64,000 nt of DNA, taken from Kiritimatiellia bacterium (GTDB lineage: Bacteria; Verrucomicrobiota; Kiritimatiellia; RFP12; UBA1067). Made by a program: the position numbers and the translations under genes. Positions 16,743 through 43,904 of this stretch are shown here, in pieces. Under the pieces are notes generated by a model. The model made no database searches. It had not been told where the DNA came from and saw only the letters and a program-made list of their open reading frames with translations. Location: NCBI GenBank assembly GCA_050949565.1, contig JBMNFY010000010.1:256001-320000 (forward strand), in the 5' to 3' direction. Within the stretch, counting starts at the first letter, position 1, and each line of letters opens with the position of its first letter.

Positions 16743-19123
16743 TCAAACGTGAGAGGTAACAGATTGTAGCCATGTAAAGAAACAAGTTACCTTGACCCTA
16801 ATCCCTGACCTACATGCGCATTTATCCTCTGCAATAGCGGCTCGAGCCGCACCTACGGCCCGGTCATAGGCCATTTGTATCCTATCTGCAGTATACAATA
16901 ATTTCATTTCTTCCATTGAGCGATCATAGTCGGCGATACCGCCATCAGTAAGCACCCATCCATCCTCATCTCGGATCAATACATACCAGAGGTCATTACA
17001 GGCAACAACCGTTGCTGCCGCATTCTTCCCCAGGCGTATATCTGCAGGGACTTGACTTTTTTCCCTGACTTCCGGCGGAATCAAGCCGCCATATTTTTTT
17101 ATTGTCTTATCAGAAAAACCGTGTCCGGCGAGCACCTCATATGTGCAGTCCGGCACGTTATAGGTTTTTAACCCCAATTTATCTGTTTTGCGCAAAGGAT
17201 CGTTCTGCACAAACCAATATAAGTTTAATCCCCCATTTTCGTGGATAGGATCCCGTCTCATCCATCGCCCGAGACCGGGCGCGTATGGCCGGAAGTTGGT
17301 ACATCACGAGGCTGGTTTCGGCATCGAACGGCTTGGTGCTGAAACGGTGTGTGAAGGTGTCCGCGAGGTCACCAGACTGGGCGGCTATCTCGCCGAAGGG
17401 CGAGTATTCGTAATGTGCGCGGATGTTGCCGTAAACGTCAACATAAGCGGTAACGTTTCCGTTCGCATCGTAGCAGGGGAAAAACGTGCCGTCGGAGCGG
17501 ATGACCGCCAGCAATCCGCCGACGCCGCCCGCGCCTTGCAATGTGCCGGACACGTCCGGCCCCCAGAGGTAGCGGGTCACGTTCGTGGTTCCGGACTGCG
17601 CGTCAACAACTACCTCGGCGGTCTGGTTCCAGCCGTCGTAGATGAACGTGCGGGTTTCCATGACATCCCATGTCCCCGGCTGCGACGGGTCAAATGGGTA
17701 ACTCGCACCCCTGCCTGAAAGCCGTTTCTTGATTTTGGCGACGCGCAAATTCTTGTGGTTGTAGACGTACTCCAGCCTGATCGCGCCGTTGGTGGCGAAG
17801 CCGTACGGTTGGGAACGGACGAGCCTGTTCTCCGCATCCCACGTATGGTGCCAGTCCCCGAGGCGCGTCATGTTGCCGTCGGCGTCGTAGGTTGGATTAA
17901 CCACAGAGGACACAGAGGGCACAGAGATTTGGGTGTACTGGTTCAGTTCGTTGGCGAGGTGCTCTGTGGTCTTTGTGTTCTCTGTGGTTGCTATTCTGTT
18001 GCCGATGGCATCGTACGCGTAACCGTAGTCGTTCGTGCCGATGACCGCACTGATGACTTCAGAACGCGCGTTGTAACCGAAGCTGTCGGCGTTGCGCGAG
18101 ACGCGCCGTCCGGCGGCGTCGTTGGCGTAGTCGTAGGCAGAGATCAAGACAGGATTAACATGATTTCCCGCTTTGCGGGCGCATGGGTTTACATGATTAG
18201 AGACGGCGGAGATGAGGTTGCGGCGGGGTTCGTAGGTTTTGGTGACAGCCAGCGGGCCGGCGGTGTAACCGGAAACGAGGTCAGAGCCGGGGAGGCAGGA
18301 GTAGTTAACCACGGAACACACAGAACACACGGAAGAGGATACGCTGTGTAAGCGGCCGAAGGTGTCGTAGCCGTACGATACGGCGTGATCGCCGTCGAGG
18401 GCGAATCCCGTCTGTCGGCCGAATGCGTCGTAAGACCGCGTGATTGCAACGCCGTCCTGAATCTCACCGACAAGGTCAAGCCCTGCATACTCAAAGAGGT
18501 GTGATGACACCGCTGTTATGGCCGAGACCATGCGCCCGAGACGGTCATAGGCGAAGGAGATGTCGGGCGTGTTGCCGCTGTAATGGACATTGGTCAATTG
18601 TCCCAATGCGTCGTAGGCATAACTGGTTGTGACGCCACGCGACCACACGCGGGTTGCAAGACGCCCGCCTTCTGTGTAAGTGTAACGGACGCGCGCCCCG
18701 TCGGCGTAGACCTTGTTCGTGAGTAACCCGGTGGCGGCGTCGTAACACCATCGTGTTACGTCGAGGGAGGAGTTAGGATTTAGGATTGAGGAGTTGGTGA
18801 CCGACGCGAAATCGAACGTGTCGTCCCGCGTGGTGGCCATGGCGATTCTGCGGCCTCGTGTGTCGTAGGCATACGCCACCGGATAGGTCGCGCCCCATTG
18901 CGCGGTGACATTGCCCGCACGGTCGTACGCGGTGGAGACCGCATTGCCGAGCACGTCGGTCTGGGAGACGGCGCGGCCCTGGCTGTCGTAGCCGGTCGCG
19001 GTGACAGCCGTCAGGGTCCCGTATGTGGTTTCATTGGTCACGGCGCTACCAAGGGTATCGTAAACGACGGCGGTTGTCGAGACCGTCCCGGCGGCGTTCG
19101 TGACGGTGCGGGAGACGGCGCGC
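16743..19123 (-). pseudogene. Orphan Rhs core + CT cassette 6, frameshifted at ~17292; CT has His-Gly/Ala-Cys (caspase-like?) motifs
   Basis: YD repeats in ORF 17179..19041. One extra base relative to the paralog at ~20490 (MYQLRPYAPGLGRW) separates it from ORF 16743..17261 (DPIHENGGLNLY..NDPLRKTDKLG, LAGHG..VVAC). Confidence 0.85.
18031..18483. repeat. ~450-bp direct repeat between Rhs cores (copy at ~21233-21685; partial copy ~32817-33013)
   Basis: Essentially identical sequence by visual alignment. Confidence 0.85.
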
Positions 19124-19790
19124 CTTTAACACATAGACCAGATTTCAGTGTCTCTTGACAATCAATCTCGGCGAGCACCATATTGTGAATCTTGTCCGGT
19201 GCGAGAACGTACACTTTGCCCGTCGGTTTGTCGTCGTGTACGAAAATATGGTTAGGTGGGTATGCAGTATATAAGCCGACCACAAGCCCCAGTCCAGAGC
19301 GTTTTTTGCCCGTTGCATCCGAGTAACAAAGGGCTTTCAGATGCTCTGGGAATGGGTATACAAGCAACTGTTTGTCCTTTTTCACTATGCGGCACTCGTA
19401 TATTGTCCGAAATAATTCCAGTAACTCTCCCATTTTGATGAATTTTATATTCAGTTCGTCGCGGGGATACAGAACGCTCCATGTCGGTTCCGGTACCGAT
19501 AATGAGCGCTTCAACCGCATCTGGACATCGACAACCCATTTGGCAAGGACTAAATCGTTTGTCATATCGGAGGAAATCTCAATTCCCGGCAATACCGGAA
19601 CGAGCATTATTTTCTCCGTCAATCCCTCGGCGTGGATTAAATCGTTCAGATGTGCAATCCAGACAATCATTCCACCCTTGGGCAACGAAACAGCCTGTAG
19701 CATCCGACCCTCGAAGGATCTCTCAGGGGATGCTCCAGCCGTCAGAAACATGCCGCACACAACTGCGATCAGAACCAGCTTCATTTGCAT
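19038..19790 (-). CDS. Putative immunity protein (secreted; STN/secretin-N-like segment); C-terminus read out of frame from Rhs DNA
   Basis: Low GC, signal peptide, overlaps the toxin stop. The last ~28 codons lie on Rhs core sequence starting near 19123. Confidence 0.7.
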   Translation of the reverse strand: MQMKLVLIAVVCGMFLTAGASPERSFEGRMLQAVSLPKGGMIVWIAHLNDLIHAEGLTEKIMLVPVLPGIEISSDMTNDLVLAKWVVDVQMRLKRSLSVPEPTWSVLYPRDELNIKFIKMGELLELFRTIYECRIVKKDKQLLVYPFPEHLKALCYSDATGKKRSGLGLVVGLYTAYPPNHIFVHDDKPTGKVYVLAPDKIHNMVLAEIDCQETLKSGLCVKGAPSPAPSRTPPGRSRQPPSFTIPLVAP

Positions 19791-21901
19791 CCCTCCTCGA
19801 GTAGCTTCTCAATGTCAGCAAGCTTTTTTTCCAAAACCGGCACATAAGAACTATAGGCAGCGCATTCACTCTCCGCTTGGCTACGAATATTAGGTGCTGT
19901 CGCTTTGGAGTAATCAGAACAGTCCACGCCAGCGGAACAGGTGGTTCTCATGTAAGCAGCCGCACCACTGATCGCCCTCGCGACAGACAGTGCCTTTTGG
20001 TAATCACAACAGCACCAATGCTCAACTGTGGCCAACTTCCCTTTCGCCCAAGTAAATGCCTTCTCCATGCACTGGACATGCTTCCATTCATGGCCTCGAT
20101 AGGATGTGCCGACCCCTGGGATGTTTTCATCTGGATCGGTGTCGGGGTCGAAGCGTACTGTCGCTTCACATTTGGAGCCGGAGTATGAAATCCGGAACTT
20201 GTTTTTATCATTTTTTGATTGAGCAAGATGGCAGGTTTCGATTTTTAACCCTTCGAGAAGGGTCATCCCGCCCAAATCGGTCTGTCCGCCGCCTCCCGGT
20301 AGTTTTGATTTAACATAGGAAACCTTACATTTTCCGCATTCTGTCGGCCACTCGGATGCGTCAAACAAGCCCCAAGGATCTTTTTTGTTTATCGAATTGT
20401 TTTTCACAAATCCGTACAGATTCCGACCACCACGCTCCCCAATCGGATCGCGGCTCATCCATCGCCCGAGACCGGGCGCGTATGGCCGGAGCTGGTACAT
20501 CACTAGGCTGGTCTCGGCATCGAACGGCTTGGTGCTGAAGCGATGCGTGAAGGTGTGGGCGAGGTCGCCGGATTGGATGACTATCTCGCCGAAGGGCGAG
20601 TATTCGTAATGGGCGCGGATGTTACCCGCCGCGTCCACATAGTCCGTGACGTTGCCGTTCGCATCATAAGAAGGGTAATAGGTTGTTAGACTGTTAGGCT
20701 GAGCAAGATCAGCGGTAGTAACAGCGAGAAGCCCGCCGACGCCGCCCGCGCCCTGCAGGGTGCCGGACAGGTCGAGACCCCATGTGTAGTAGGTAACGTT
20801 GGTGGAAGGCGCGACCTCGTCTATCACGATCTCCGCCGCGATGTTGTACCCGTCCCACACGTAGCGGCGGGTCTCGATGGCGTCCCATGTGCCCGGCTGC
20901 AAGGGGTTGAACGGATAGTCTGCGCCTCTGCCTGAAAGTCGTTCGGTAATCTTCGCGATCCGAAGGTTGCGGTGATTGTACTGATACTTGAGCCTGACCG
21001 CGCCATTGGTGGCAAAGCCGGCGGGTTGGGAACCGGTCAGCCGGTTTTCCGCGTCCCATGTGTGATACCACTCTCCGAGGTACGTCATGTTGCCGTCAGC
21101 ATCATACGCCACGGCAATGGGAGGCGTGACGGCGGTGTACTGGTTAAGGCGGTTAGCAGTGTAGCTGTTGGTGACGGCGTTGAACGCTGACCAAACGCGG
21201 TTGCCTATGGCATCGTACGCATAACCGTAGCTGTTCGTGCCGATGACCGCACTGATGACTTCAGAACGCGCGTTGTAACCGAAGCTGTCGGCGTTGCGCG
21301 AGACGCGCCGTCCGGCGGCGTCGTTGGCGTAGTCGTAGGCAGAGATCAAGACAGGATTAACATGATTTCCCGCTTTGCGGGCGCATGGGTTTACATGATT
21401 AGAGACGGCGGAGATGAGGTTGCGGCGGGGTTCGTAGGTTTTGGTGACAGCCAGCGGGCCGGCGGTGTAACCGGAAACGAGGTCAGAGCCGGGGAGGCAG
21501 GAGTAGTTAACCACGGAACACACAGAACACACGGAAGAGGATACGCTGTGTAAGCGGCCGAAGGTGTCGTAGCCGTACGATACGGCGTGATCGCCGTCGA
21601 GGGCGAATCCCGTCTGTCGGCCGAATGCGTCGTAAGACCGCGTGATTGCAACGCCGTCCTGAATCTCACCGACAAGGTCAAGCCCGGCGTACTCAAAGAG
21701 ATGCGACGACACCGCCGTGATAGCAGATACCACACGCCCGAGACGGTCATAGGCGAAGAAGACGTCGGGCGTAGTGTCACTATAGTTGATGCTTATCAAC
21801 TGACCGAGCGCGTCGTAGGCATAACTGGTCGTTATGCCGCGCGACCAGACACGCGAGGCGAGAAAGCCGTTTCGTGCGCGTTTAATTGTGCCAACCGTCA
21901 T
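19781..21901 (-). CDS. Orphan Rhs core + CT cassette 5 (HEXXH metallopeptidase-like CT)
   Basis: YD repeats, GAGGVGGLLA, NNSINKKDPWG junction, CT contains HEWKH; ATG 21901 with AAGGGAG RBS. Confidence 0.88.
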   Translation of the reverse strand: MTVGTIKRARNGFLASRVWSRGITTSYAYDALGQLISINYSDTTPDVFFAYDRLGRVVSAITAVSSHLFEYAGLDLVGEIQDGVAITRSYDAFGRQTGFALDGDHAVSYGYDTFGRLHSVSSSVCSVCSVVNYSCLPGSDLVSGYTAGPLAVTKTYEPRRNLISAVSNHVNPCARKAGNHVNPVLISAYDYANDAAGRRVSRNADSFGYNARSEVISAVIGTNSYGYAYDAIGNRVWSAFNAVTNSYTANRLNQYTAVTPPIAVAYDADGNMTYLGEWYHTWDAENRLTGSQPAGFATNGAVRLKYQYNHRNLRIAKITERLSGRGADYPFNPLQPGTWDAIETRRYVWDGYNIAAEIVIDEVAPSTNVTYYTWGLDLSGTLQGAGGVGGLLAVTTADLAQPNSLTTYYPSYDANGNVTDYVDAAGNIRAHYEYSPFGEIVIQSGDLAHTFTHRFSTKPFDAETSLVMYQLRPYAPGLGRWMSRDPIGERGGRNLYGFVKNNSINKKDPWGLFDASEWPTECGKCKVSYVKSKLPGGGGQTDLGGMTLLEGLKIETCHLAQSKNDKNKFRISYSGSKCEATVRFDPDTDPDENIPGVGTSYRGHEWKHVQCMEKAFTWAKGKLATVEHWCCCDYQKALSVARAISGAAAYMRTTCSAGVDCSDYSKATAPNIRSQAESECAAYSSYVPVLEKKLADIEKLLEEGCK

Positions 21902-21921
21902 ATGGTACGCTCCCTTCTTCG

Positions 21922-22398
21922 TCAATCCTTCTGTTGTTCCAAGAGGATCATCGCGGTCTTCGCATCACAGTTTCTTAAACCCATAACCATCTCGCAAGGA
22001 GTTTGGGCAGCAGATGCGTAAACACTCTCTGGGTTACCCACAACCTTATCATCAATAAAAACAATATACATAAGCCCGTTATCAATCAAATCCATCCATT
22101 TTTTATTGTCGCTGTCACCCGACTCACCACCAAAAGCCCAAGCCCATACATGTTGGCTGTCCGTATTCTGTGGCAACCCAACAATGCGTTCAACCTGTGC
22201 CTTGCTCATCCCTTTTTTTATACGTGACAAAACAAAATTGTGATGCCGCTCTATTTCACTTGCCCGCTCACTGGCGGGCGTCAGGCGGATTCTTTTTATA
22301 GTATTGATTTCCCAACGTCGATATACGACCAATCCTCCGATACCAAGCAAGAAAAGCGTTGTGGCGACCTTGACTAATAAACGGTTGAACTTAATCAT
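21922..22398 (-). CDS. Putative immunity protein, membrane-anchored SmpA/OmlA(BamE)-like domain
   Basis: N-terminal TM helix; RIKKGMSKAQVERIVGLP..W.W..YIVFIDDKV pattern; low GC; GAGG RBS. Confidence 0.75.
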   Translation of the reverse strand: MIKFNRLLVKVATTLFLLGIGGLVVYRRWEINTIKRIRLTPASERASEIERHHNFVLSRIKKGMSKAQVERIVGLPQNTDSQHVWAWAFGGESGDSDNKKWMDLIDNGLMYIVFIDDKVVGNPESVYASAAQTPCEMVMGLRNCDAKTAMILLEQQKD

Positions 22399-22406
22399 AG
22401 TGCCTC

Positions 22407-25001
22407 CTATTCTGCGGAAAAATAAATGCGTTTAGCAGGACTGCTCGGGCCATCAGGAACAGTGTGGATCACCAGTCTAAACGGCTGAAGGCCACTCTTG
22501 TCAGGCCGCGCAGTTACGCTAATGTACAAGTCTGTTCCAAGGTAGACGCCAACATGCCCAGGGAAGGAAATGATGTCGCCAAAAACTGGGGTACGCATGC
22601 CTTCAACTCCAGTCAAAGGTTGCTCCCAAGTTATCGTCGTTTTGTCCCCTCCGCCATCTTTCTTTTGAATGATCCATACGACCCTGAAGCTCCCCATGTT
22701 TCGTGAATTGAACCACTCGCTGGCAGAAGGGTAGCGATAGCCGAATTTCCACCACGCATCATCACGAGGCACGATATTACTTTCGAATCCAGCATACTGT
22801 ATTACGGCCACGTATTTGCTGCAGGTTGCTCTGCTCTCGGTCGGTGCATAGTACCTTGCTAATGCCGGATCTGCCCAAATTCTAAGAGCGTGGAGCCCAA
22901 CCCTCAAGTTCGCTGGATCTTGAGGCCCTTTTACAGCATCAATCCGAGCTGTCATGTCTGCAATGACAGCTCGTACTGCCCTGGCAAAGTCTGGACTGCC
23001 TTTCTCCGATTTTTTTGCTAGCGACTCTAGCCTTGTCAGTATCGTCGTGTCTGAAGAAGTTTGGGGACGTAGCCCATTGACATCAAACACATCAACAGGA
23101 CTATTTCTGGCGAAACAGTATAAGTTGTTTCCCCCACGCTCTTCAATCGGATCTCGATTCAACCAGCGCATGAGTTTGGGGCTGTAAAAACGGTAGCCGT
23201 AGTAATAGAATCCGGTTTCGTGGTGGAGGTACTTGGTGCTGAACCAGAAGTTGAAAACTCCGGCCATCGGCCCGGATGCGGCGCGGGTTTCGCCGAAGGG
23301 GCCGTACTCGCGGTGCGCGACGGTTGCGCCAGACTCGTTAATATAGTCTGTGACATTGCCGTTGTTGTCATAGATTGGGAAGTACCACGCATCGTTGATG
23401 CGGGTGGCGAGCAGACCGCCCACGCCGCCCGCACCGCCGCGCGTTCCTGAGAGGTCCTTGCCCCAGACGTGCTCGCGAGTTTCAGTCACGCCGCCGGTGC
23501 GACTTATTTTTTCCAGCACGGGCAGCCAGCCGTCGTAGATGAAGGTGCGGGTTTCCACGGTGTCCCATGTGCCCGGCTGCGAGGGATCCATGGGATAGCC
23601 CGCGCCGCGTCCGCTCAGCACTTCCACGTGCGTCTCCACGAGACGGCTCTTATGGTCGTAGCGGTTGAAGGTTCTGCGTGCGCCGTTGGTGGCGCCGCCC
23701 CAGCCGGGCCCGGAGCGCACCAGCCGGTTCTCCGCGTCCCACGCATGGACGAAACGTCCGTCCCACGTCATGTTGCCATCAGCGTCGTGGACTGGATTAA
23801 CCACAGAGGGCACAGAGGACACGGAGATTTGGGTATACTGGTTAAGGGCATTGGCGGTATAGGTGTTGGTGACCGCATTGCACGACACCCAGATATTGTT
23901 TCCAATACCATCATACGAATAGTTGAAACAGTCGGCACCGATCACCGCGCCGGTGACTTCGGAACGGGCGTTGTAGCCGAAGGTGTTCGCGTTGCGGTTG
24001 GTCACATTGCCGAGAATATTGTAACCGTACCCTATCGCCGAATGTGACGAAACGCCGACCGTGTTTGATACGGCTGTGATAAGGTGCCTGCGGTACATGT
24101 CGCGGGTGACGGCGCGGGTGACGCTAAGCCCGTTTGCAAGAGTGACGGCATAGCCCGCGTCCCAGCCGTCGGCGGTAAGCGCGTAAGCCACAGTGAAGGC
24201 ATCGTTCGAGGTCACGGCAAGACGGTTCTCTGCGTCATAGCCATAATAAACTGGAGTGTTGCCGACATGCAACGCGGATAGGCGGCGGCGTTCGCCCAAT
24301 TCGCGGGTCAACGCGCAGGTGTTTGTGTCAACGATGACTAGCTCGTTGGTGGCGATGCCGGAGAGGCTGTTTACGTATTCGTACCGTGCGACGGCGTTTG
24401 ACGAGGCCGCAACGCGGCCAAAAACGTCGTAGGCGTGATAAACGTCCGGCGTGGCGTCACTGTAGGTGACGCTTGCCAGTTGCCCCAGCGCATCATAGGC
24501 GTTCTCTTTCCATGCTCCGCGAGCCCATGTCGTGCGGAGCGGTTTGCCGTTTTGCGTGTGCGTGTAGGCAACGTGCGAGCCGTCAGCGTAGACTTTGTTC
24601 GTGAGCAGTCCCGTGGCATGATCGTACTCCCAACGTGTCTCGTCGCCGTCATCGTTCTCGTCGCGGAAGGTGCGCATGGATATGCGGCGTCCGGCGGTGT
24701 CGTAAGTGTAGGCGACTGGGTAGGTCGCGCCCCATTGCGCGGTGACGTTCCCCGCGCGGTCGTACGCGGTGAAGATCGCATTGCCGAGCGCGTCGGTCTG
24801 GGACACGACGCGGCCCTGGCTGTCATAGCCGGTCGCGGTGACAGCCGTCAGGCTCCCGTATGTGGTTTCATTGGTCACGGCGTTACCAAGGGTATCGTAA
24901 ACGACGGCGGTTGTCGAGACCGTCCCGGCGGCGGCGTTCGTGACGGTGCGGTTGGTGACGCTGGGAGAGGGCTGGAACTTGTTGTCACTTTCTGGTTTCA
25001 T
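22407..25001 (-). CDS. Orphan Rhs core + CT cassette 4 (NlpC/P60-like amidase CT)
   Basis: YD repeats; NSPVDVFDVNG junction; CT has TCSKYVA..YAG and GDIISFPGHVGVY. Plausible ATG at 25001 with GAGAGG; the ORF extends to 25163. Confidence 0.88.
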   Translation of the reverse strand: MKPESDNKFQPSPSVTNRTVTNAAAGTVSTTAVVYDTLGNAVTNETTYGSLTAVTATGYDSQGRVVSQTDALGNAIFTAYDRAGNVTAQWGATYPVAYTYDTAGRRISMRTFRDENDDGDETRWEYDHATGLLTNKVYADGSHVAYTHTQNGKPLRTTWARGAWKENAYDALGQLASVTYSDATPDVYHAYDVFGRVAASSNAVARYEYVNSLSGIATNELVIVDTNTCALTRELGERRRLSALHVGNTPVYYGYDAENRLAVTSNDAFTVAYALTADGWDAGYAVTLANGLSVTRAVTRDMYRRHLITAVSNTVGVSSHSAIGYGYNILGNVTNRNANTFGYNARSEVTGAVIGADCFNYSYDGIGNNIWVSCNAVTNTYTANALNQYTQISVSSVPSVVNPVHDADGNMTWDGRFVHAWDAENRLVRSGPGWGGATNGARRTFNRYDHKSRLVETHVEVLSGRGAGYPMDPSQPGTWDTVETRTFIYDGWLPVLEKISRTGGVTETREHVWGKDLSGTRGGAGGVGGLLATRINDAWYFPIYDNNGNVTDYINESGATVAHREYGPFGETRAASGPMAGVFNFWFSTKYLHHETGFYYYGYRFYSPKLMRWLNRDPIEERGGNNLYCFARNSPVDVFDVNGLRPQTSSDTTILTRLESLAKKSEKGSPDFARAVRAVIADMTARIDAVKGPQDPANLRVGLHALRIWADPALARYYAPTESRATCSKYVAVIQYAGFESNIVPRDDAWWKFGYRYPSASEWFNSRNMGSFRVVWIIQKKDGGGDKTTITWEQPLTGVEGMRTPVFGDIISFPGHVGVYLGTDLYISVTARPDKSGLQPFRLVIHTVPDGPSSPAKRIYFSAE
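24143..24617. repeat. ~475-bp direct repeat between Rhs cores (copy at ~26956-27430)
   Basis: Near-identical sequence encoding ..SNAVARYEYVNSLSGIATNEL.. Confidence 0.85.
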
Positions 25002-25218
25002 CCATCCTCTCCGCTCCCGCTTCATCGGCCCAGTTTGTACATGTGTTCCCATTCGTTCCGTTAGTCGGTGTTTTAAGTTGCGACACAACTTGTTTGGCAC
25101 GAATTGTTGCCCGTCGATTAGATTGGTGTTGATAAAACAGATACATAACTTGTACGAACACAAAATACACTATGAAAACAATGACTATGCACAAAACAAT
25201 CTTGCCGAACAGCTTCAT
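24985..25218 (-). CDS. Short putative immunity protein with N-terminal TM helix, possibly truncated
   Basis: MKLFGKIVLCIVIVFIVYFVF.., 77 aa, starts just after the toxin stop, low GC. Confidence 0.6.
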   Translation of the reverse strand: MKLFGKIVLCIVIVFIVYFVFVQVMYLFYQHQSNRRATIRAKQVVSQLKTPTNGTNGNTCTNWADEAGAERMDETRK

Positions 25219-25225
25219 CACGCCC

Positions 25226-34434: not shown

Positions 34435-34491
34435 TCGTTTTACGAGTTTACTTGTTATTCTCGAAATGCTTACCAGTTTGTTGCCAGCGGT

Positions 34492-35199
34492 TCATCGTTG
34501 AAGCACTCTTGATTCCAATTGTTCAATGGATATCGTTCTTTTCGCACGAAACATTATGCGCGTCCACTCCGTTTCAAATGTCTTCGCGTACGAAGCCAAA
34601 ACAGCGTCTTTGCACGGTGATTTTGGTGGGCAAATAACAAAACGGAGTATCGCTTTAATCATGACCTCCCTTCCTGGAAGAAGAAGTGAGACATCATTCC
34701 AGAATGGAGATTCCGCGAGTGGGTCATCCATTACTTTTTTCAACAGATCATCCGTCCATCCGGGAATGTTTTCCCAGACCGCATCGTCTAGTGTGATGGG
34801 AATTGAAAGTGCCCCGCCAGACGGAATACAGTGCAGGTCCTGTAAATTCCGATACCAAACGCCTTCACGCTTCTTTAGATGGTAAACCTCGTTATTGGCA
34901 AACTTGATCTCTAATTCAATATCATAGTAACCTATCTCAAACTCTTCATCACATATAAAAATGTCATCACGCGTCCTGTTCCTAATTACGAGCAGACAAT
35001 CAACATAATCGAGCGCATTTGACGATAAACGGCTTTGTTTTTTGATGAAAGCGTCCTTATAGGCTTCGTAAGGTTCTGCTTGGAGACTGGTCCCTCGATT
35101 ATGTTCGGAAATAAAGACCTCGATCTCATTCACGGCCCGGCATCCCGTAAGACACAGCAAAATGTAAACAACAAAGAGTTTGTCGCATAGATCACGCAT
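34492..35199 (-). CDS. Putative orphan immunity lipoprotein
   Basis: Lipobox LTGC, low GC, GAAGGGA RBS. Confidence 0.72.
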   Translation of the reverse strand: MRDLCDKLFVVYILLCLTGCRAVNEIEVFISEHNRGTSLQAEPYEAYKDAFIKKQSRLSSNALDYVDCLLVIRNRTRDDIFICDEEFEIGYYDIELEIKFANNEVYHLKKREGVWYRNLQDLHCIPSGGALSIPITLDDAVWENIPGWTDDLLKKVMDDPLAESPFWNDVSLLLPGREVMIKAILRFVICPPKSPCKDAVLASYAKTFETEWTRIMFRAKRTISIEQLESRVLQR

Positions 35200-35214
35200 G
35201 ATTAGAAGTTCCCT

Positions 35215-35352
35215 TCAACTGTTAACGTTTGACATCCGAGTATGGCTTTGAAAAAAACCTTTGGGATGCCCTTGCGAATCATACCGCTCACATGCAGATA
35301 GCAACAATAGCGCAACTACAAGGATAAAAACGACAATTTTCTTATTTCCCAT
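35215..35352 (-). CDS. 45-aa small lipoprotein or truncated immunity gene (below ORF-track cutoff)
   Basis: MGNKKIVVFILVVALLLLSAC-ERYDSQGHPKGFFQSHTRMSNVNS*; lipobox LSAC; start overlaps the end of the upstream gene. Confidence 0.6.
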   Translation of the reverse strand: MGNKKIVVFILVVALLLLSACERYDSQGHPKGFFQSHTRMSNVNS

Positions 35353-35794
35353 CGATTTTCTCCTTATTTGCATTTAATAAAAGAGTCCCTTCCCTTTTCA
35401 TATCATCTTTTGTCCCCCAGCGTTTATCCTTTCCGGCACTGTACACGCCTACAAATATGCCGTCATCTCTTTTATCTATCACATATTTCACTGCCGTTTT
35501 GTAAACATCGAATATCTCATTTGTTGTAACATCAATTTGTGGGCGTTTTTGTAACAAGAACGAGTGTAGTGACCCATCGATTGGCGGGGATGTCGACAGA
35601 TATTCGCCAATAGCGTTCTGGATAATGGCAAGTTTTGAACGGTTCAGTCTTGTACGAATCGGGTTCCGGAACCGGAGCCCTGCCGACACGACTATAACGG
35701 TTGCAAGGGATAACACAGCAAGTAATACAAGGGTGGTTTTGGTTGTTTCGGTTTCCTTGAAGCTCATCATTTCAGCCCTCTCGATTTCAGTCAA
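35342..35794 (-). CDS. Putative cognate immunity protein of the full-length Rhs; T2SS pseudopilin G-like C-terminus
   Basis: TM helix; LAIIQNAIGEY..D.Y...YVI..GVYSAGKDKRWGTKDDM resembles the GspG motif; start may be ATG 35770. Confidence 0.72.
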   Translation of the reverse strand: MTEIERAEMMSFKETETTKTTLVLLAVLSLATVIVVSAGLRFRNPIRTRLNRSKLAIIQNAIGEYLSTSPPIDGSLHSFLLQKRPQIDVTTNEIFDVYKTAVKYVIDKRDDGIFVGVYSAGKDKRWGTKDDMKREGTLLLNANKEKIDGK

Positions 35795-38700
35795 TCCAAT
35801 AGAACATAGTACTAACCACGGTGCGAAAACCGCTGAGGCAGCACTTGTCTACAGCCTCTTGAACATCTCCTTGACAATTCCATCCCCTGTGGCGTTGTTT
35901 TGCCCTTAGGCACTCTAAGATATCGCTTTCGGTTGCGCACTTGCATTTCAAACCTGCTTTCCCGTATCGCAGAGTACCCGAAGAACGGATACTTAATGGA
36001 TAAACAGTGCTTACAAACTTGTTATCTGGTCTCCATCGGTTTGGCCCTCCGCCAGCCCCCACATAAACAACCGTTCCGTTATATGTTATGTCGACGTGAT
36101 ATACTCCTAAAAGATTAAGCACTTTTGCTTCCAGCATGTCAGGGTCAATTTCGTCAGCTATAACCGCGAATCCAACCTCTGGAATTGAAACGGGTAAAGG
36201 AGGCGGCGGCTTGGGCAAACACATGTTAGCAGACCAACTCCAATAAAAGCCTTCTGGGCAGAGCCCCAAATAATCCCACTTGTTTATAGGGTCATTTTTC
36301 ACAAATCCGTATAATTTTAAGTCACCGCGTTCCCCGATCGGGTCTCTGCTCAGCCAGCAGCCTAACTTCGGCGCGTAATGTCTGTAGCCGTAATAATAGG
36401 AGCGGGTCTCTTCGTCCCAGTACTTCGTGGAGAAGCGGAACTTGAAAGTGTGGACGAGGTCGCCCCACATGGCTATGGTGTTGCCGAACGCATCGTATTC
36501 GAAGTGTCCACGCACGGTGCCGTTACCGTCAACGTAATCCGTTATGTTCCCGTTGGCATCGTAGCACGGGAAAAATGTGCCGTCAGAGCGGATGACCGCC
36601 AGCAATCCGCCGACACCGCCCGCGCCTTGCAATGTGCCGGACACGTCCGGCCCCCAGAGGTAGCGGGTCACGTTCGTGGTTCCGGCCTGCGCGTCAACAA
36701 CCACCTCAGCGGTCAGGTTCCAGCCGTCATAGATAAAGGTGCGGGTTTCCACAACATCCCACGTTCCCCCCTGCGACGGGTCGAACGGATAGCCCGCGCC
36801 GCGTCCGGTCAGGACCTCCACGCGCTTTTGGATCCGGCGGTGCCTGTGGTCGTAGCTGTTGACAACCCTGACCGCACCGTTTGTAGAGCCGACCCAACCC
36901 GGCTCGGAATGCACCAAGCGGTTCTCTGCGTCCCAAGTGTGCCACATCCTCCCGTCCCAACGCATGTTGCCGTCGGCGTCGTAAACGGGGGACACCGAAC
37001 CGGCGGCGGTGTACTGGTTAAGGGCGTTAGCCGTGTAGGTGTTGGTCAGGGTATTCACCGCCGACCAGACGCGGTTGCCGATGGCGTCGTACGCATAGCC
37101 GTAGTTGTTTGTGCCGATGACCGCACCAGTGACTTCCGAACGCGCGTTGTAGCCGAAGCTGTCGGCGTTGCGGGAAACGCGCCGTCCGGCGGCGTCGTTG
37201 GCGTACGCGAAAACCGAGACAGGCGATCCGGCCCACAAGTTGGAGACCGCCGTTATGAGGTTGCGGGCGGGCTCGTACGCGACCGACCGCCCAAGTCCCG
37301 CCGTGCCGGTCATACCAGAGACCATGGCCGTGCCGGGCAGATAGGAGAAACCGAAGGCGAGCGCGGGCACCGCAGAAGAAACAGAGGCGACGCGCCCGAA
37401 TTCGTCATACCCATAAAAGACGGTGAACGTTTCCGCGCTGTAAACGGGCAATGCCTGACTGAAAGAGGACAACCGGCCTACACCGTCGTATTGCCGTTCG
37501 GACGTGTCCAGCGCGTTGGTCTCGGCGGTGACGCGCCCGCGCGCGTCGTAAGCGAAAGAGCGTGTGCCGGTGCCGTCGACGACTTCGGCCAGCCGTCCGG
37601 CGAGGTCGTAGCGGTTGGTCACGTTAGGCGTCGGGCCGGAGTACAGGACGGTCTGTATGCGCCCGTCCGGGGTGTCGCTGTATCCATGCGTGGCGGTCAC
37701 GCCGCGCGCCCATGTGCGCCGCGATAGCCTGCCGTCCGGGGTGTAGGCGTATGACGGCCCCAGCCCGTCGGCGTAGACCTTGTTGGTCACAAGCCCCGAC
37801 GCCGAGTCATAACGCCAGCGCGTGACGTCGGGCGGGCCGCCCTCGTCGCGCCATGTGTGCAGTTCCGTCCGGTTGCCGTCGGCGTCCCGCACCGTCGTGT
37901 GCGGGTATGCCGCGCCCCCGGAGCGGTAGGGCGTGCCGTCGCCGGAGTAGTGGTTGGTCGTCACGTTGCCGAGCGGGCCGGTGACGGTGACCCGATAGGC
38001 GGTGCCGGGCGAGCCGGTGTATTGGCGCGGCGAATATGCGGTCGCGTTGGTCACGCCGCCGCAGATTTCGGCGGTGTGCGCGACCGTGCCGTCGGCGTGG
38101 TATCCGGTCACGGTCTGGAGGACGCGATCCCCCGCGCTTTGCGTGACCGCCGTCTGCCGCCCGAAGCCGTCGTAGCGGTACGCGAAGGCCGCGCCCAGCG
38201 CGTTCGTGCGGGCTGTCTCGCGTCCGGCGGTGAAGACCGAGGTCTCGGCGCTCAGGGTGGCGGTGTTGAGGCGCGTCACGGTTTTCCGCGCATGGGCGGC
38301 GTCCAGCGCCTCGGTCGTGATTACGGTCACGCCGTCCGCATCGGTCGCCACCGTGCGGGCGGTGCAGGCGGGCGACAGCCCGGTGAGCTGCACGCGGGTG
38401 ACGGATGCTGTTGCCGCGCCTTGGCCGGGGATGCGCGAGACAACGGCGGAGCAGTCCCACCATGCCGTCGGTACGCCGTGGACGGAAAGCCCGAGGTCGG
38501 ATTCCTCCATCCACGACGGCGTCTCTTCGATGGCGTACTTATCCAACGCGGCCACGCCCTCCGGCGTGAAGTCCAGCGGGTCGAAATCAAGCGTCTGCCC
38601 CGCGCCGATCCGCATGGTTCCGGCAAGTTCGCCGAATCCGCCGTAGGCATAGGCGGACGCCGAGCCGTCGGGGTTGCGCGTGAACGCCAGCCGCCCGGCC

Positions 38701-41700
38701 GCGTTGTACGCGTTGGACGTGACCAGCATCGCGCCGCCGTGCCCGGCGCGCTCCGTCACGACCGCGCGCCCGAGGAAGTCCTTGCGCGTGACCGACTCGG
38801 TCGCCCACGGGCCGTTGTTGCGGCTGACCGAGACCGTGACCGTCTCGCGCCCGTCGGCGTCCCACGACGTTTCCGTTTTCACGATGCGTGAAAGCTCTTC
38901 GCCGCTGGCGGGGTCGGTCCAGCGTTCTTCTTCCACCGTCGCGCCGCCGCGATAGCGGTGGACGATGCCGGTGACGCCTGCGGAGGCGGTCCAGTCGGCC
39001 TCGTAATACGTGCAGAGATAGGGGGCCGAGACCGTCTGGACGCCGAGGGGGTCGGTAGTGACGCGGTGGTCGCAGACGCCGTGAGGGTAGGCGGTGCGGG
39101 TTTCGAGGGGGGCGGAGGCGGGGTCGCGCGCGCCGTTCTTCCAGACGCAGCGGACGGTGTTGGTGACGCGCCCGAAGCCGTCGCGGAAGGTCTCGGTGAC
39201 GGGGTGCGCGCCGCCCGCGCCGGGAAGGCTGCCGGCTGAGGTCTCGGCCTCGGCGGACCAGCCGGGCACGCCGGGGATATGCCAGTGCTCGGTCACGGCT
39301 CCGTCTCTTGAGCGCACGGCGGCGAGGCGGCAGCAGTCGTAGAGGTTGGTGAGGGCGGTGCCGTCGGAGAACTCGGTGCGCAGCAGACGGCCCTTCTCGT
39401 CGTAGGCGGAGGCCTCCCAGGCGAGGGGGCTGTCCGTCGCGGCGTGGCGCGTCTCGCGCAGGAGCAGGCGGCCGTGGGCGGCGTCGGTGATCCTGACCTC
39501 GGCCAGCGGCGAGGCGGAGGAGGCGGAGACGGCGCGGATGAAGGCGCCGCTAGGGTCCGCAGTGAAGGCGCGGGCGGCGGGGTCGTAGCCGCCGGGCGTG
39601 TAGGCGTGGCTATTGGTGACGCCGTCGCCGGTGATTTCGAGGAGCGGCAGATTGCGGAAGGCGTCGGGGACGCCCATGTCGGCGTAGCGCACGTCCAGCG
39701 ATGTCTGCCCGTCGCCGGGGACGCCCGGCGGCGGGAGGCGGGTGGTCGCGGCGGCGACGGCGGGGAGGCCGTTGGTCTCGAAGCGCGTGAGGACGCGGGC
39801 GAGGGCGGCGACGGGGAGCGCGCCGGAGGCGGGATCGCGGAGGACGAAGACGGATTCGGCGCGGGGGATATGGGCGTCGGCGGGGTCGGCGCTGTCGGCG
39901 GGGTCGGCCGGCGCGTAGGCATAGAGCGTGAGGGTGCAGGGCGGGGGCCAGAAGGGCAGGTCCGCCAGCGCTTCGGCCGGTATGCCGTCCGGCCGGGCGG
40001 CGGCGAAGGCGTCGAGGGCCTGGATCTGAGTCCTCGGACGGCTCGTAGGAGCCGTCGAGCTGGTCGAGGGCGAGGACCGGCGCGGCCCCGGGCGTCGCGG
40101 GCGGTGTAGCGCCACGGGCGGTCGCTGCCGGCGGCGAAGCGGGGCGTGCCGTTGCGGGCGGGGTTGGCGCCGTCCTCGTGGTAGGAGGCCCGGGAGGTGC
40201 GGGGGTTGCTGTCGCTGTAGGCGCCGCACTCTTCGCGGTAGACCTCGCGCAGGACGGCTGACGGGCCGATGCCGATGCGCTTGGAGACGGTGACGGTCCG
40301 CGAGAGTTCGCGGGCGGCGTCCGAGACGCTGCGGGTCTCGGTGAGGGTGGCCTCGGGGGCGTTGAGCCGGTCCTCGCGGGCCAGGGTCTCGGTGAGCCCC
40401 GTGAGGTTGTCGGTGCGGGCCGAGACGCCGGGCGTCGAGAGGACGTAGGTCATGTCGCGGATGACGTTGCCCGCCTCTTCGCGGGTGACGCGGATGCGCG
40501 CGGTGTCGCCGCCGGGGTTGGCGAGCGTCCAGGTGTAGGGGTCGGCGCCGGGGTCGGTCACGGTGAGGGCGACGCCGTGCGGGACCGGAGTGACGGTGAC
40601 GCTGCGCCAGGGGGTGGCGAGCGACGCGACGCCGTGGGCGTTGCTGGAAACGGTGAGCGTGTCCGCGAACCACGGCGAGGGCAGGACGTTCAGGGCGGCG
40701 GGGGAGAGGGCGGCCGGGGCGTCGGCCCGGAGCCAGACGAAGCCGGCGGCGCGGCCTTTGGCGGGGCGTCCCAGGGGGATGCGGAACTGGAAGGAGCCGT
40801 GGCTGTCGCCCTCGGTCTCGTCCTCCGCGCAGTCGCCGGAGGCGCAGGCGTCCCCGCAGCCGCCGCACTCGGGGCCGGAGAGGAGCTCGCGGCCGGATTC
40901 GATGCCGCAGTCGTGGTCGTGGGGCGGGACTTCGCCCTGCCAGACGGCGACGCCGTTGACGTAGAGCGTGTTGCCGCCGGTCTGGAAGGCGTAGGGGCAG
41001 TCGTCCGGCAGTCCGGCGTCGAGCGTCAGGACGCAGTTGCAGGCGCCGCTCTGATGGGTCGTCCAGTCCCGCCAGAGGCAGCCGCTGTCCAGGGGGTATT
41101 CGCAGGGCCGGCTGTAGTGCTTTTCGGCCTCGGCGCTGTAGGCGAGCCCGCCGCAGTGATCGCCGGACCAGCGGAGGGAGGGCGCGGCGATGACGAAGTC
41201 GACGGGGGGCGCGCCGCGCGCCGCGGGCGGGAGGAGCGTGAAGGCGGCGGGCGGGAGCGGGTAGACGCCGGGGCGGGCGGCCGCGAGGGTCGAGGCGCCG
41301 GCGTCGAAGGCGAGCCCCTCGACGCCGGTGAAGGGCGCGGCGGCCGCGAGTTCCAGATCATCCGGCGGGGCGCGGTGCGGGCGGGCGGCGCGGTTGACGG
41401 CGACGGGGATGGCCGGGGGGGACCCGGGGGCGATGACCGGCAGTCCGGCGGCGTCCACGGCCGTGGGGAACGAGACCCCGGGCGTCCAGGCGAGCAGGTA
41501 GAGGGGCTGCCGGTTGGCGGCGGGGGCGGAGGGGGAGGCGGCGCGCAGGCGGAGGGTGAAGTCGCCGGGCTGCGCGGGGAGCGGGAGGCGCAGGGAGTCG
41601 TCCGGCGGGAAGGCCGTGAACACGCCGCCGGTCGTGCCGCCGCTCCACTCGAGGGCGGCGCCTTCGAGGCGGACGGGGGCCGCGCGGTCGGGGGCGGAGG

Positions 41701-43147
41701 AGAGGAAGGCCTGGAAGGCGCTGCTCGCCCGCCTGAACGTGAAGGTGCGTTCCCAGATCAGGTTGGTGAGGCCGCTCCTCCCCGTCGTGACGGTGAAGGG
41801 CGGCGCGAGGAGGGCGGCGGCGAGGGTGTTGGAGAGGGAGGGGGCGGGGATGAAGAAGAGTCCGGCGGCGGCGGGGTCGGCGCCGGCGAGGAGGGCCGCG
41901 CCGTGCGTGAAGCCGGAGGGGGAGATGTCCGAGGCCGAGTGGGCGACGCCGGTGGCGCCGTAGCGGAAGATCTCCCAGGCGTCGGGCAGGCCGTCGCCGT
42001 CGAGGTCGGCGGCGGGGGTCGGGGCGCGCGGGTCGGGGTCGGAGCCGTCGCAGAGGCCGTCGCCGTCGGTGTCGCGCGTGAGCGGGCAGGTGCCGAGGGC
42101 GGTCTCAGCGCCGTCGGACAGCCCGTCGAGGTCGGTGTCGGCCATGGAGGGGTCGGTGCCGTGGATGAACAGCTCGTCGTGGGTGGAGAGGCCGTCGCCG
42201 TCGTGGTCGCTGACATCGGGGTCGAGCATGCCGAAGGCGCGCCAGCGCAGTTCGAGGCCGTCGGCGGGGGCGGCGGGGTCGTTCCGGGCGAAGGCCTCGC
42301 CGCCGCCGTTGTGCCGGGCGCCGATGAAGAGGTTGGTGAAGGCGTGGCCGCCCGAGCGGAGCGCGGAATTGGAGGGCACGCTGTAGCGGAAGGCGAAGTC
42401 GCCGTTTTTGAAGAGTTCGGACTGGAAGGAGACCGGGCAGTTGGTGTCGCGCCCGGCGTAGAGGTTCTCCCAGGTCAGCAGCAGGCTGTTCGAGGCGGTC
42501 AGGGCGTGCCAGAAGCGCCCCTGCGGCGGCACGGTGCCGAAGCTGCCGTGCAGCGGCGCGAGCAGGCTGGCGTTCTCGGGCACGGAGGAGGGGGAAGGCG
42601 TGGATAACGGGTTCTGGAACGACACCAGCCCGGAACTCGACACGTAAAGGCCGTCGACCTGGTTGGTGCCGAGGGTGAAGGACCAGCCGTTTGTCCGCAG
42701 CCAGAAGATGTCCTCGGCCACGCCGTACACGGTCCACGGCGCGTGGACCACGGCGTTGGAGGGCGCGGTGCGCCAGGCTGCGGGGTTGGTCGCGGCGGAG
42801 ATCCGGGCGAAGCCGGCGGCGTACTGGGCGGGGGTGAGCGCACCGGCGCGGGGCGCGCCGGTGCGGTCGTTCAAAGGTTCAAGACGTTCAAGAGGTTCAA
42901 GCGGGACGGCGGAGGTGGCGGCGGCGGGGACGGGCTCCGGGGCGCCGGCCGGGACCTTGCGCTTGGAACCGCCGCTGACACAGCACGCGATAAGAAAAAT
43001 CGCGATGAACACTTGGCCGAAGCGGGACTGGGCGAGGAAGCGACGCATGAGCATGCCGACAACGCCGCCGCCGGTCTCGTATGCGCGGGCGATGAACCAG
43101 AGCACGAAAGCGATGCCCAGGAAAATGAAAAGCATGTTGGGTGTCAT
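35787..43147 (-). CDS. Full-length ~2450-aa membrane-anchored Rhs polymorphic toxin (two apparent +1 indels at ~40081 and ~40030)
   Basis: ORF 39293..43147 (TM helices, GGSK, nidogen-like region, DxDGDG Ca-binding repeats) joins ORF 35787..40868 (YD repeats, NDPINKWDYLG, CT with H..NC) through a short third-frame bridge GRPVLALDQLDGSYEP. Confidence 0.82.
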
Positions 43148-43173
43148 ATTCGCGTCTTTCCGGCTACTTTAAC

Positions 43174-43308
43174 GGTGTTCTTGCAAGCCCCTCGTGGCAT
43201 GGGCGTCCCGCCCATGAACACGGGCAAGATGCCCGTGCCACTCACGCCCATGAACACGGGCAGGATGCCCGTGCCACGCCTGCAAACGAGAAGTTCTGCA
43301 AAAGCCTC
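43174..43308. mobile_element. Degenerate copy of the MITE with an extra REP unit
   Basis: GGTGTTCTTGCAAGCCCCTC..GTGGCATGGGCGTCCCGCCCATG..(CACGGGCARGATGCCCGTGCCAC)x2..TTCTGCAAAAGCCTC; no TSD visible. Confidence 0.82.
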
Positions 43309-43313
43309 TCCTG

Positions 43314-43904
43314 TCATTTGATGGTGATCCGTGTGGCGTCCGGGGCGGACATGATGGTGATGCGCTCCTGCGGCGCGTCCGCGCCGCGCGCGGTGACGCG
43401 CAGGGTGTCCCAGGTTCCGGGGTGCAGCCACTCCGGCAGGGGCGGCGGGGGGAGCCCCGCGAAGGCGACCGCGCCGTCGCGGTCGGTGAAGGCCGGGGGC
43501 AGGCAGTCGCCTGCGGCGGTGACGCGGATGAGGGCGGTGAGCCTCTGCGTGCCGTTGGACGAGGCGGCGGGGACGGCGTGGCGGGCGCGCAGGCCGCGCG
43601 GCGACAGGAACCACCCGCCGCGATCCCATCCGATGGCGAGGTCGGTCTCGCCCGCATCGAGCGCGCCGTCCGCCGGGGCGGTATCGCGGCCCAGGCAGAC
43701 CTGGACGTGGTTGGAGGGCGTGGCCTCGAAGACAAGCTCGAGGCGGAAGACGCGCGGGCCGTCGGGACCGGCGGCGGGCAGGGCGTGCGTCGCCGACACC
43801 TCGCGGTCGGCGGTCGCGGGCCCCGGCAGGGGCTGCACCTCCAGAGTGGCGGCACCCGCCGCCAGCGCGGCTGCGGCAATGGCAATAGCGATGTTGTGTT
43901 TCAT
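43314..43904 (-). CDS. Secreted hypothetical protein, first gene of the Rhs operon
   Basis: ATG 43904 with GAGGAG RBS, signal peptide, 196 aa, same very high GC as the Rhs N-terminus. Confidence 0.75.
   Translation of the reverse strand: MKHNIAIAIAAAALAAGAATLEVQPLPGPATADREVSATHALPAAGPDGPRVFRLELVFEATPSNHVQVCLGRDTAPADGALDAGETDLAIGWDRGGWFLSPRGLRARHAVPAASSNGTQRLTALIRVTAAGDCLPPAFTDRDGAVAFAGLPPPPLPEWLHPGTWDTLRVTARGADAPQERITIMSAPDATRITIK

Follow-up and report, generated by a model that had tools for sequence, protein, structure and literature searches.

To our knowledge, the Rhs toxins of Gram-negative bacteria have been studied almost entirely as cargo of a type VI secretion system (T6SS). The locus analysed here lies in a 64,000-nucleotide stretch of Kiritimatiellia DNA (contig JBMNFY010000010.1, positions 256,001 to 320,000; the whole stretch is called the window below). 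At positions 16743-43904, the minus strand of the window carries one full-length Rhs gene, six 5'-truncated cassettes composed of an Rhs core and a C-terminal toxin tip (CT), eight small open reading frames (ORFs), and one gene for a secreted protein at the head. The operon appears to run in the order of partner gene, toxin gene, small immunity-type genes encoding membrane or exported proteins, and six orphan core and CT cassettes. We favour, with moderate confidence, the view that this is a T6SS-independent polymorphic toxin locus with a previously unnamed carrier and partner, in which the six cassettes can swap the toxin tip. The locus is real and probably functional. An earlier note on this DNA, made from its letters alone, had proposed a surface-tethered Rhs toxin system; its count (a single full-length gene, six orphan cassettes, seven toxin tips) agreed with the ORFs and junctions described below, coordinates included.

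Comparison with described systems

T6SS Rhs effectors have prePAAR or transmembrane N-termini and Eag chaperones, and the small gene located just upstream encodes the protein that binds the N-terminal part of the effector. The toxin in the window resembles them in its N-terminal hydrophobic helices, and in the Rhs shell with a CT and an immunity gene. However, neither a PAAR domain nor T6SS genes were found here. The partner also differs from Eag, in that it carries a signal-peptide-like N-terminus and a predicted lectin-like sandwich fold, and would therefore act outside the cytoplasm. In the teneurins and in TcB/TcC, a YD-repeat shell encloses the C-terminal toxin, and the teneurins are anchored by an N-terminal membrane helix. 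The shell with its C-terminal toxin is a shared feature, whereas SpvB, propeller and TcA parts were not found in the protein by Pfam, and the layout of orphan cassettes and immunity genes is bacterial and of antibacterial style.

WapA of Bacillus subtilis is described in PMC4436062 as a Sec-exported, wall-associated Rhs toxin that does without a T6SS and has a polymorphic CT and an immunity gene. The toxin in the window is likewise an Rhs protein that probably does without a T6SS and has a polymorphic CT and a putative immunity gene. Unlike the Gram-positive WapA, which has a cleavable signal and no outer membrane around its host, this toxin belongs to a diderm, starts with a hairpin, is accompanied by a partner gene, and uses a carrier that is also found on non-Rhs cargo. 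The catalogue of Zhang et al. 2012 (PMC3482391, main text) lists predicted RHS toxins fused to a PrsW peptidase and 'T2SS' (type II secretion system; signal-peptide) RHS toxins in many phyla, including Verrucomicrobia. Their N-terminal trafficking parts, as given there, are likewise membrane-embedded or Sec-dependent, but the module described here has no PrsW match. The terms nidogen, TSP3 and thrombospondin do not occur in the main text of that paper, whose supplements may list further N-terminal domains.

By analogy, the closest working analogue is the Maf system of pathogenic Neisseria. According to PMC4436062, it is arranged as mafA-mafB-mafI with orphan mafB-CT modules. The upstream MafA is a glycolipid-binding adhesin, while MafB has a Sec signal, an N-terminal domain restricted to the genus and a variable CT; its secretion route across the outer membrane is given there as unknown, with vesicles as a proposal, and both proteins are found in vesicles. 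The resemblance covers the upstream exported partner, the Sec-type N-terminus, the restricted N-terminal domain, the CT, the downstream immunity gene and the orphan cassettes. In contrast to Maf, the N-terminus here is a two-helix hairpin instead of a plain signal peptide, the cargo can be a whole Rhs shell, DUF1020 was not found here by Pfam, and the partner has no detected sequence family. The giant protein described in a paper on the Planctomycetes-Verrucomicrobia-Chlamydiae group (PMC12057145) is a different one, with a plain signal peptide. Literature searches on T6SS-independent Rhs proteins, Kiritimatiellia Rhs toxins and NIDO-domain polymorphic toxins turned up no description of this module. 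The carrier module and its partner are new as far as these searches reach.

Carrier module and its cargo

As judged from sequence comparison, the N-terminal ~400 residues of the toxin form a modular carrier that is not specific to Rhs proteins. The layout is common to paralogues and relatives, and consists of helix 1, an Arg-rich loop, helix 2, the motif G-G-S/T-K-P/T, a low-complexity linker rich in Pro and Ala, the beta-sandwich domain and TSP3 repeats. In the window, helix 2 ends with ...CCVSGGSK, so the two hydrophobic helices closing on GGSK read as the earlier note had described them. Its calcium-binding DxDGDG repeats were also recovered, as TSP3_bac (PF18884) in 3 stretches, with E 1.3e-11 in a Pfam search of the sub-region and E 5.6e-9 in the Pfam search at E<=0.01. 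The VIA structural search aligned 47 residues of these repeats with the B domain of Bap, 38% of them identical. A lipoprotein signal in helix 2 (LIAC/C) was considered and dropped, because the Cys is absent in paralogues and relatives while G-G-S/T-K is conserved.

Searches of residues 1-1000 with Pfam (E<=0.01, and E<=1 on sub-regions), NCBIfam and PDB sequences detected no family of the PAAR, VgrG or WXG type. The earlier note, which had recognised no such domain, named a carrier of the PAAR/VgrG type in the N-terminus as one finding that would speak against it; the sequence searches looked for one and returned none. PrsW or any other named family besides TSP3_bac was likewise absent from the module by Pfam and NCBIfam. 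The nidogen-like label that the note had given to the region between the helices and the repeats was not confirmed, as NIDO gave no Pfam match at E<=1 over residues 61-400 and the structure model matched only generic beta-sandwiches, with a best VIA Z of 6.6 where the usual background best is 7-8. The suggested check with AlphaFold and Foldseek yielded a module model of moderate quality (AlphaFold2, pLDDT 64.1), for which no Foldseek match was obtained at E<=1e-3.

The beta domain defines a sizeable family of proteins. An exhaustive phmmer search of 1.84 billion representatives found 511 at E<=1e-3 and 217 at E<=1e-10, with the domain almost always at residues ~90-330. Among the 150 listed representatives, 125 had an M start and at least one hydrophobic segment within the first 130 aa; 88 of these had at least two segments, and in 53 of the 88 a small-small-small-K motif closed helix 2. 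The source names were all 'hypothetical protein' except one 'FlgD immunoglobulin-like domain containing protein', and the sources were mostly metagenome-assembled genomes (MAGs) of Kiritimatiellia. Searching with the first 1,000 residues gave two kinds of match. The first was full-length, as at eight places in the related genome G029, where open frames of 1,164-2,547 aa aligned from residue 51, 63 or 96 up to residue 1000 with 44-48% identity. The second covered residues 1-381 only and included several proteins of the window's own genome at up to 80% identity, the remainder being unrelated. The non-Rhs paralogues of this genome were near-identical in the N-terminal part and then diverged.

The cargo behind the module was varied. 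We scanned 29 of the 150 listed representatives with Pfam, taking lengths of at least 1,250 aa spread over the range of E-values. TSP3_bac was found in 21, RHS_repeat in 5 and PAD (arginine deiminase) in 3, and Colicin_M, Tae4, Peptidase_M10, DUF900, Abhydrolase_6, FlgD_ig and UPF0257 occurred once each. Both Colicin M and Tae4 act as toxins on the cell wall, which they attack from the periplasm. The window's own genome has 8 places with the beta domain. Four further loci of this genome showed the order of partner, module protein and one or two low-GC exported ORFs, and the cargo of its non-Rhs loci had no Pfam family. A shared N-terminal module with varied tips reads as the signature of a polymorphic toxin family.

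The same cargo could be taken to mean that the module is a general periplasmic anchor displaying the envelope enzymes or adhesins of the cell itself, and not a carrier of weapons. The peptidases, hydrolases and Ig-like domain among the cargo would fit such a role, as would the large share of cargo without any family. We consider this very improbable in view of the Rhs core and CT arrays with their composition switches, the presence of Colicin M and Tae4 in the family, the orphan CT pieces and paired small exported ORFs at non-Rhs loci, and the near-identity of paralogues in the N-terminal part followed by divergence. Orphan cassettes, paired small ORFs and N-terminal identity followed by divergence are given as marks of polymorphic toxins in PMC4436062 and PMC3482391.

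Two non-Rhs loci of the same genome deserve description. At L104 (G000:C17:1934000-1949000), a unit of ~6.9 kb stands in two tandem copies whose ORFs have the same lengths. Each unit contains the partner, a module protein of 1,282 aa with HExxH in its C-terminal part, and then low-GC exported ORFs of 292 and 298 aa. At L106 (G000:C17:1104000-1111400), a 1,307-aa non-Rhs module toxin is followed by exported ORFs and two short orphan fragments, which repeat the C-terminal HExxH region of the toxin and each precede another exported ORF. These orphan tips suggest that orphan-cassette switching is not confined to the Rhs members.

In the phylum sample, the carrier was restricted to a single order. 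Of 251 genomes drawn evenly from the phylum, 29 belong to the window's order of Kiritimatiellia; the beta domain was present in 11 genomes, all within the order (11/29, against 0/222 elsewhere in the phylum). Thus, the delivery module is lineage-specific, as had been claimed, but it is not peculiar to Rhs toxins, being a general carrier fused to many cargo types. Scanning contigs with the module alignment returned mostly TSP3 repeats of unrelated phyla. Four loci matched the sandwich domain, 3 from Kiritimatiellia/Kiritimatiellae MAGs and 1 from an 'uncultured bacterium'.

Between the module and the YD-repeat shell lies a middle region (residues ~400-1000) that showed 31-38% identity to the Rhs-type genes of six relatives. 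Its Cys/His-rich stretch has three invariant Cys (C361, C368 and C373 of the alignment), so the Cys/His-rich linker of the earlier description is present. No PDB sequence matched the region, either with the protein as query or with a 7-row profile (best E 1.7), and the ESM Atlas offered no usable match for residues 400-1000.

Partner gene and predicted complex

The product of the gene at the head of the operon has no Pfam or NCBIfam family. Its signal-peptide-like N-terminus agrees with the small secreted protein that had been noted at this position. The AlphaFold2 model was an all-beta sandwich (pLDDT 75.9, pTM 0.74). In a Foldseek comparison with the PDB, the top match was galectin 4agg_A (E 4.9e-4, TMq 0.43), and further matches included the lectin domains of calreticulin, lectins from legumes and the part of exotoxin A that binds its receptor. 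The model thus suggests a ConA-like lectin fold, at modest scores. The alignment of homologues contained 21 invariant columns.

A module match lay directly downstream on the same strand in at least 37 of the 67 listed partner matches. This is a lower bound, since the comparison is of listed matches and 162 module matches lie beyond the list; of the remaining 30, at least 6 are located where a contig ends. The gaps between partner and module match reach ~640 nt, a distance spanned by the hairpin and linker. In the 251-genome sample, where relatives are not independent, both genes were present in 8 genomes, the module only in 3, the partner only in 2 and neither in 238. The window's own genome has an intact partner at 6 of its 8 module loci and a remnant of 23-24 aa at the other 2. 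On this comparison, linkage of the partner tracks the module and not Rhs. The upstream gene had been proposed as a conserved partner, and the loss of linkage that would have argued otherwise was not seen. In a related genome (G027:C392:6733-7209), a partner-like stretch (E 9.3e-21) lies within a 1,165-aa open frame, which may be a fused partner-toxin form.

The complex between partner residues 20-196 and module residues 100-400 was predicted with an ipSAE of 0.81, compared with 0.32 for the best control, as a model confidence derived from small alignments of 8 and 10 rows. Among solved complexes, 58 of 80 attained this ipSAE mark, as did 2 of 110 mismatched pairs. Three runs agreed in at least 94% of the contacts, with a partner pLDDT of at least 74. 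On the module side, the modelled interface is formed by the near-invariant columns W74-L86 (the VYGVAEDIFW strand). On the partner side, it involves TADRE (D33 and E35), N65, T171, R173 and G174, all invariant in the partner alignment. The interface therefore coincides with the most conserved residues of both proteins, and the partner is predicted to bind the most conserved strand of the module.

Integrity of the full-length gene

In the window, the full-length Rhs gene is split into overlapping frames of 1,284 and 1,693 codons. Alignment to an intact 2,541-aa relative in genome G029 located the frame changes at 40094-39725, and reading in three frames resolved two successive +1 shifts ~50 nt apart, with insertions near 40030-40033 and 40077-40081. 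We placed contigs of four public runs (X1 and X2, DNA; X16, an RNA library; X15) on 35700-44200. The X15 contigs covered neither insertion site, which left X1, X2 and X16 as informative. X1 left out a base at 40030 and at 40081 at depth 40/40. In X2, the pair 40030/40081 was left out at depth 25.7/36.6 and the pair 40032/40077 at 10.9/36.6, while X16 left out bases at 40033 and 40077 at depth 9.52/9.52. With one base dropped per site, the gene becomes a single frame of 2,452 codons with zero internal stops, in line with the indels that had been suspected from the letters. An intact gene exists in nature, as the contigs of these three runs demonstrate. Because the two extra bases are absent from the public contigs, the two frameshifts in the window are most likely assembly errors or private to the strain.

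The frameshifts might also be read as decay, the locus being a remnant that yields no product, with both the full-length gene and cassette 7 reduced to pseudogenes. Consistent with this, the main gene has two frameshifts, cassette 7 has one (an extra base near 17293 relative to cassette 6), and another module gene of the same genome, on contig C19, is also split over two frames. We regard decay as improbable, because every contig in 3/3 covering runs lacks one base per site and so gives the 2,452-codon ORF. RNA-library contigs also cover much of the Rhs gene at >=99% identity, with DNA carry-over possible, and the genome, in 21 contigs, is of an inferred assembly type that is prone to single-base indels. 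At the split locus on C19 (G000:C19:20323-21980, partner and module), module residues 1-132 lie in one frame and 133-350 in the other. Since this locus is broken as well, single-base indels may be common in the assembly.

The 1-kb stretch around the frameshifts was found in 20 of 24 listed runs, 16 of which had at least half of its words and 6 of which were RNA libraries. The runs came from 18 studies of bioreactor, anaerobic digester, biogas fermenter or sludge metagenomes. The presence of the locus in many digester metagenomes and in RNA libraries suggests that it is likely in use. Contigs of the public runs differed from the window in clusters of bases within the Rhs gene, at 40058-40085 and 42487-42503, and these clusters point to strain variants of the locus in digester communities.

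Toxin tips and small downstream genes

The full-length gene was matched by RHS_repeat (PF05593, E 2.4e-17) in Pfam, and by Rhs_assc_core (TIGR03696, E 2.9e-21) and YD_repeat_2x (TIGR01643, E 4.7e-18) in NCBIfam. Core/CT junctions were found at seven positions, one in the full-length gene and six in the cassettes, each with the motif RDP[IM]xxxG...(D)xxGL. At every one of the seven, the GC content fell from 0.59-0.63 in 600 nt of core to 0.41-0.50 in the CT, which bears out the low-GC switch that had been described after the junction. The orphan core and CT cassettes lie 3' of the main gene. They retain 68-77% nucleotide identity to the main core across 0.47-1.16 kb, corresponding to the last ~0.5-1.2 kb of the core, which is sufficient for recombination. 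The seven CTs of the array are all different. Family matches, junctions and cassette identity together confirm a real Rhs/CT/immunity array, as the note had stated, and the array itself is ordinary.

None of the 7 CTs had a significant family, Pfam at E<=1 giving only sub-threshold LysM and NodA matches. For CT5, a feature search of the ESM Atlas placed clusters of NlpC/P60, CHAP and endolysin-like proteins as the nearest named ones, at 0.91-0.92, with 132-156 shared features where at least 170 are usual for true family members. CT5 matched no PDB sequence at E<=10, and a word-indexed search within the length range of 504-1,607 aa returned only its own cluster. By eye, CT4 contains GHG and AC motifs that may be caspase-like, and CT5 contains Cys and His motifs that may be of papain type. 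We also considered whether abundant Cys might mark tips that act in the periplasm, and dropped the idea, as it applies to CT1, CT6 and CT7 only.

Small ORFs, 8 in total, follow 6 of the 7 CTs. The downstream immunity-type genes of the earlier note were thus found at all tips except CT7. Each of the 8 small ORFs has exactly one N-terminal hydrophobic segment, and 4 look like cleavable or lipoprotein signals. They are putative immunity-type genes for membrane or exported proteins. The set had been called exclusively extracytoplasmic, which goes too far for 4/8 cleavable-looking signals and an I1a body that the charge bias would place in the cytoplasm. The signals of the small ORFs, the LysM- and NlpC-like leads, and the Colicin M and Tae4 of the wider family are indirect leads, on which it is likely that the CT tips are directed at the envelope. 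For one small ORF, I3a (28593-29078), the model for type IV pilus outer-membrane proteins of the Amuc_1098 family aligned over model positions 244-357 with E 9.3e-13, a match well under the curated cut-off. This ORF presents a secretin-N-like domain in an immunity-type position.

Export and proposed mechanism

The window's own genome (21 contigs, 92.4% complete) had 0 matches to the profiles of VipB/TssC, PAAR, Phage_GPD (VgrG) and Hcp, and VipB/TssC matched none of 41 genomes of the order. The 64-kb window contained no secretion genes. On both points, the earlier description of a non-T6SS toxin with no secretion genes nearby agreed with the searches, and the locus is probably T6SS-independent as far as they extend. 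The genome-wide search for secretion systems, which the note had called for, found no T6SS markers; secretin-type matches over the cut-off were located at 5 places elsewhere in the genome. Searches of the genome for ShlB/TpsB and for TcA_TcB_BD returned no match, but the controls matched nowhere either. Peptidase_C39, of the double-glycine leader route, gave one weak match (E 2.4e-5, 57/133 positions).

We propose the following sequence of events. The hairpin would insert in the inner membrane with its basic loop inside, so that the rest of the protein faces the periplasm. The secreted lectin-fold partner would dock on the module strand YGVAEDxFWL, as the model predicts. By analogy with solved Rhs proteins, the shell would enclose the CT and the Rhs core would cleave it. 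Our best guess for the following step is that the toxin is freed from its anchor near G-G-S/T-K and crosses the outer membrane through a secretin or in vesicles. Partner and module might then serve as the part for surface binding or entry, comparable to MafA/MafB or the receptor domains of colicins, which is again a best guess. The CT would act in the envelope of the neighbour, and the orphan cassettes would replace the toxin tip by recombination. More tentatively, module and partner could mark an undescribed pathway of export and delivery for large folded cargo, including Rhs shells of ~270 kDa, that works without T6SS, type V secretion system or Tc-type injector and has its outer-membrane component encoded elsewhere.

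The earlier note had favoured a toxin that stays tethered to the surface by its N-terminal helices and kills on contact only, like WapA or CdiA. The hairpin is conserved, the long linkers and calcium repeats could serve as a stalk, and the lectin-fold partner could bind neighbouring cells; WapA itself is a Sec-exported Rhs protein acting by contact, according to PMC4436062. However, the presence of secretins indicates a diderm host, in which the helices are expected in the inner membrane, and reaching a neighbour would require crossing the outer membrane. A two-partner or autotransporter part was not found either, in a search whose ShlB controls matched nowhere. Permanent tethering therefore seems unlikely to us.

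Several observations also weigh against the reading that we prefer, a T6SS-independent locus with its own carrier and partner. None of the toxin tips (0/7) has a significant family, the CT5 lead falls below the range usual for true family members, and CT7 has no small ORF after it. The charge bias of I1a points its body to the cytoplasm, and three other small ORFs are ambiguous. The window copy is frameshifted twice, and if these shifts are real, the full-length gene of this strain is dead. The fold model of the module is moderate (pLDDT 64) and matched nothing specific, and the score of the complex expresses model confidence. Among the genes linked to the locus, none encodes an outer-membrane component, the Rhs shell is in our own judgement large for a secretin, and the step of export and delivery is a proposal throughout.

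If the preferred reading holds, one unnamed front end serves Rhs shells, Colicin M, Tae4 and further toxins across an order where the searches detected no T6SS marker. This shared front end offers a basis on which to name giant proteins, in the hundreds, now listed as 'hypothetical' in the Kiritimatiellia of digesters and rumen. The protein pair is testable for how cargo exits a diderm cell and finds its target, and the locus family offers new toxin tips together with new immunity genes.

Locus features and neighbouring genes

Table 1. Positions of the features of the Rhs locus in the window (I, small ORF following the CT of the same number)
Feature	Position	Strand	Remarks
Partner gene, 196-aa secreted protein, signal-peptide-like N-terminus	43314..43904	-	heads operon; ConA/galectin-like fold predicted
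Two REP-like palindromic repeat copies	43188..43278	.	gap between partner gene and toxin gene
Full-length Rhs toxin gene	35787..43147	-	starts MTPNMLF; 2,452 codons without two 1-nt insertions
Module part 1: hydrophobic helix 1, Arg-rich loop, hydrophobic helix 2, GGSK	42959..43147	-	residues 1-63
Module part 2: conserved ~209-aa beta-sandwich domain	42224..42850	-	residues 100-308
Module part 3: TSP3-type calcium-binding repeats (DxDxDGxxD)	41960..42223	-	residues 309-396
Middle region, ~620 residues, Cys cluster ECGxCxxxCxxGDC	40094..41959	-	found only in Rhs-type members
YD-repeat shell and Rhs-associated core	36255..39725	-	ends RDPIGERG...DYLGL, motif start 36347; 35.5% identity to intact 2,541-aa G029 gene
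CT1, 155 aa, GC 0.47, 7 Cys	35790..36254	-	no known family
I1a, 150 aa, N-terminal membrane anchor	35345..35794	-	charge -2 before, +6 after
I1b, 235 aa, lipoprotein-type signal	34495..35199	-	L-T-G-C, by eye
Orphan cassette 2 (core and CT2)	31300..34434	-	77% nucleotide identity to main gene over 971 nt
CT2, GC 0.47	31303-31728	-	sub-threshold NodA match, E 0.08
I2, 162 aa, N-terminal anchor	30798..31283	-	
Orphan cassette 3 (core and CT3)	29106..30749	-	5'-truncated Rhs core
CT3, GC 0.41	29109-29555	-	
I3a, signal-like N-terminus	28593-29078	-	after CT3
I3b, signal-like N-terminus	28118-28552	-	
Orphan cassette 4 (core and CT4)	25226..28099	-	5'-truncated Rhs core
CT4, GC 0.47	25229-25867	-	sub-threshold LysM match, E 0.13
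I4, 97 aa, N-terminal anchor	24988..25278	-	
Orphan cassette 5 (core and CT5)	22407..25163	-	5'-truncated Rhs core
CT5, GC 0.50	22410-23063	-	NlpC/P60, CHAP, endolysin-like Atlas clusters, lead only
I5, 158 aa, N-terminal anchor	21925..22398	-	
Orphan cassette 6 (core and CT6)	19781..21925	-	5'-truncated Rhs core
CT6, GC 0.50, 12 Cys	19784-20359	-	
I6, 250 aa, signal-peptide-like N-terminus	19041..19790	-	
Orphan cassette 7 (core and CT7)	16743..19125	-	two frames via extra base near 17293; no small ORF after
CT7, GC 0.48	16746-17162	-	

The palindromic repeats resemble repetitive extragenic palindromic (REP) elements. The unit is ~37-55 nt long with the stem GGCACGGGCA...TGCCCGTG, and it also occurs in the gap between partner and toxin gene at paralogous loci. 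At its bases, ~200-260 matches from the window's own genome pile up in blastn-short. The contig depth of public runs was 620-5,646 on the repeats, compared with roughly 5-270 in flanking bins, and many loose contig ends lay at 43188 and 43241.

The neighbours of the array in the window are rhamnosidases, an EpmA-like tRNA-synt_2 protein, a zinc ribbon protein, two DNA methylases and oxidoreductases. The adjoining block at 44080-48367 has a lower GC content (0.47-0.53) and contains the two DNA methylase genes, one of them with a MerR/HTH N-terminus, together with a 400-aa ORF without family on the opposite strand. This block may be a restriction-modification or defence islet.

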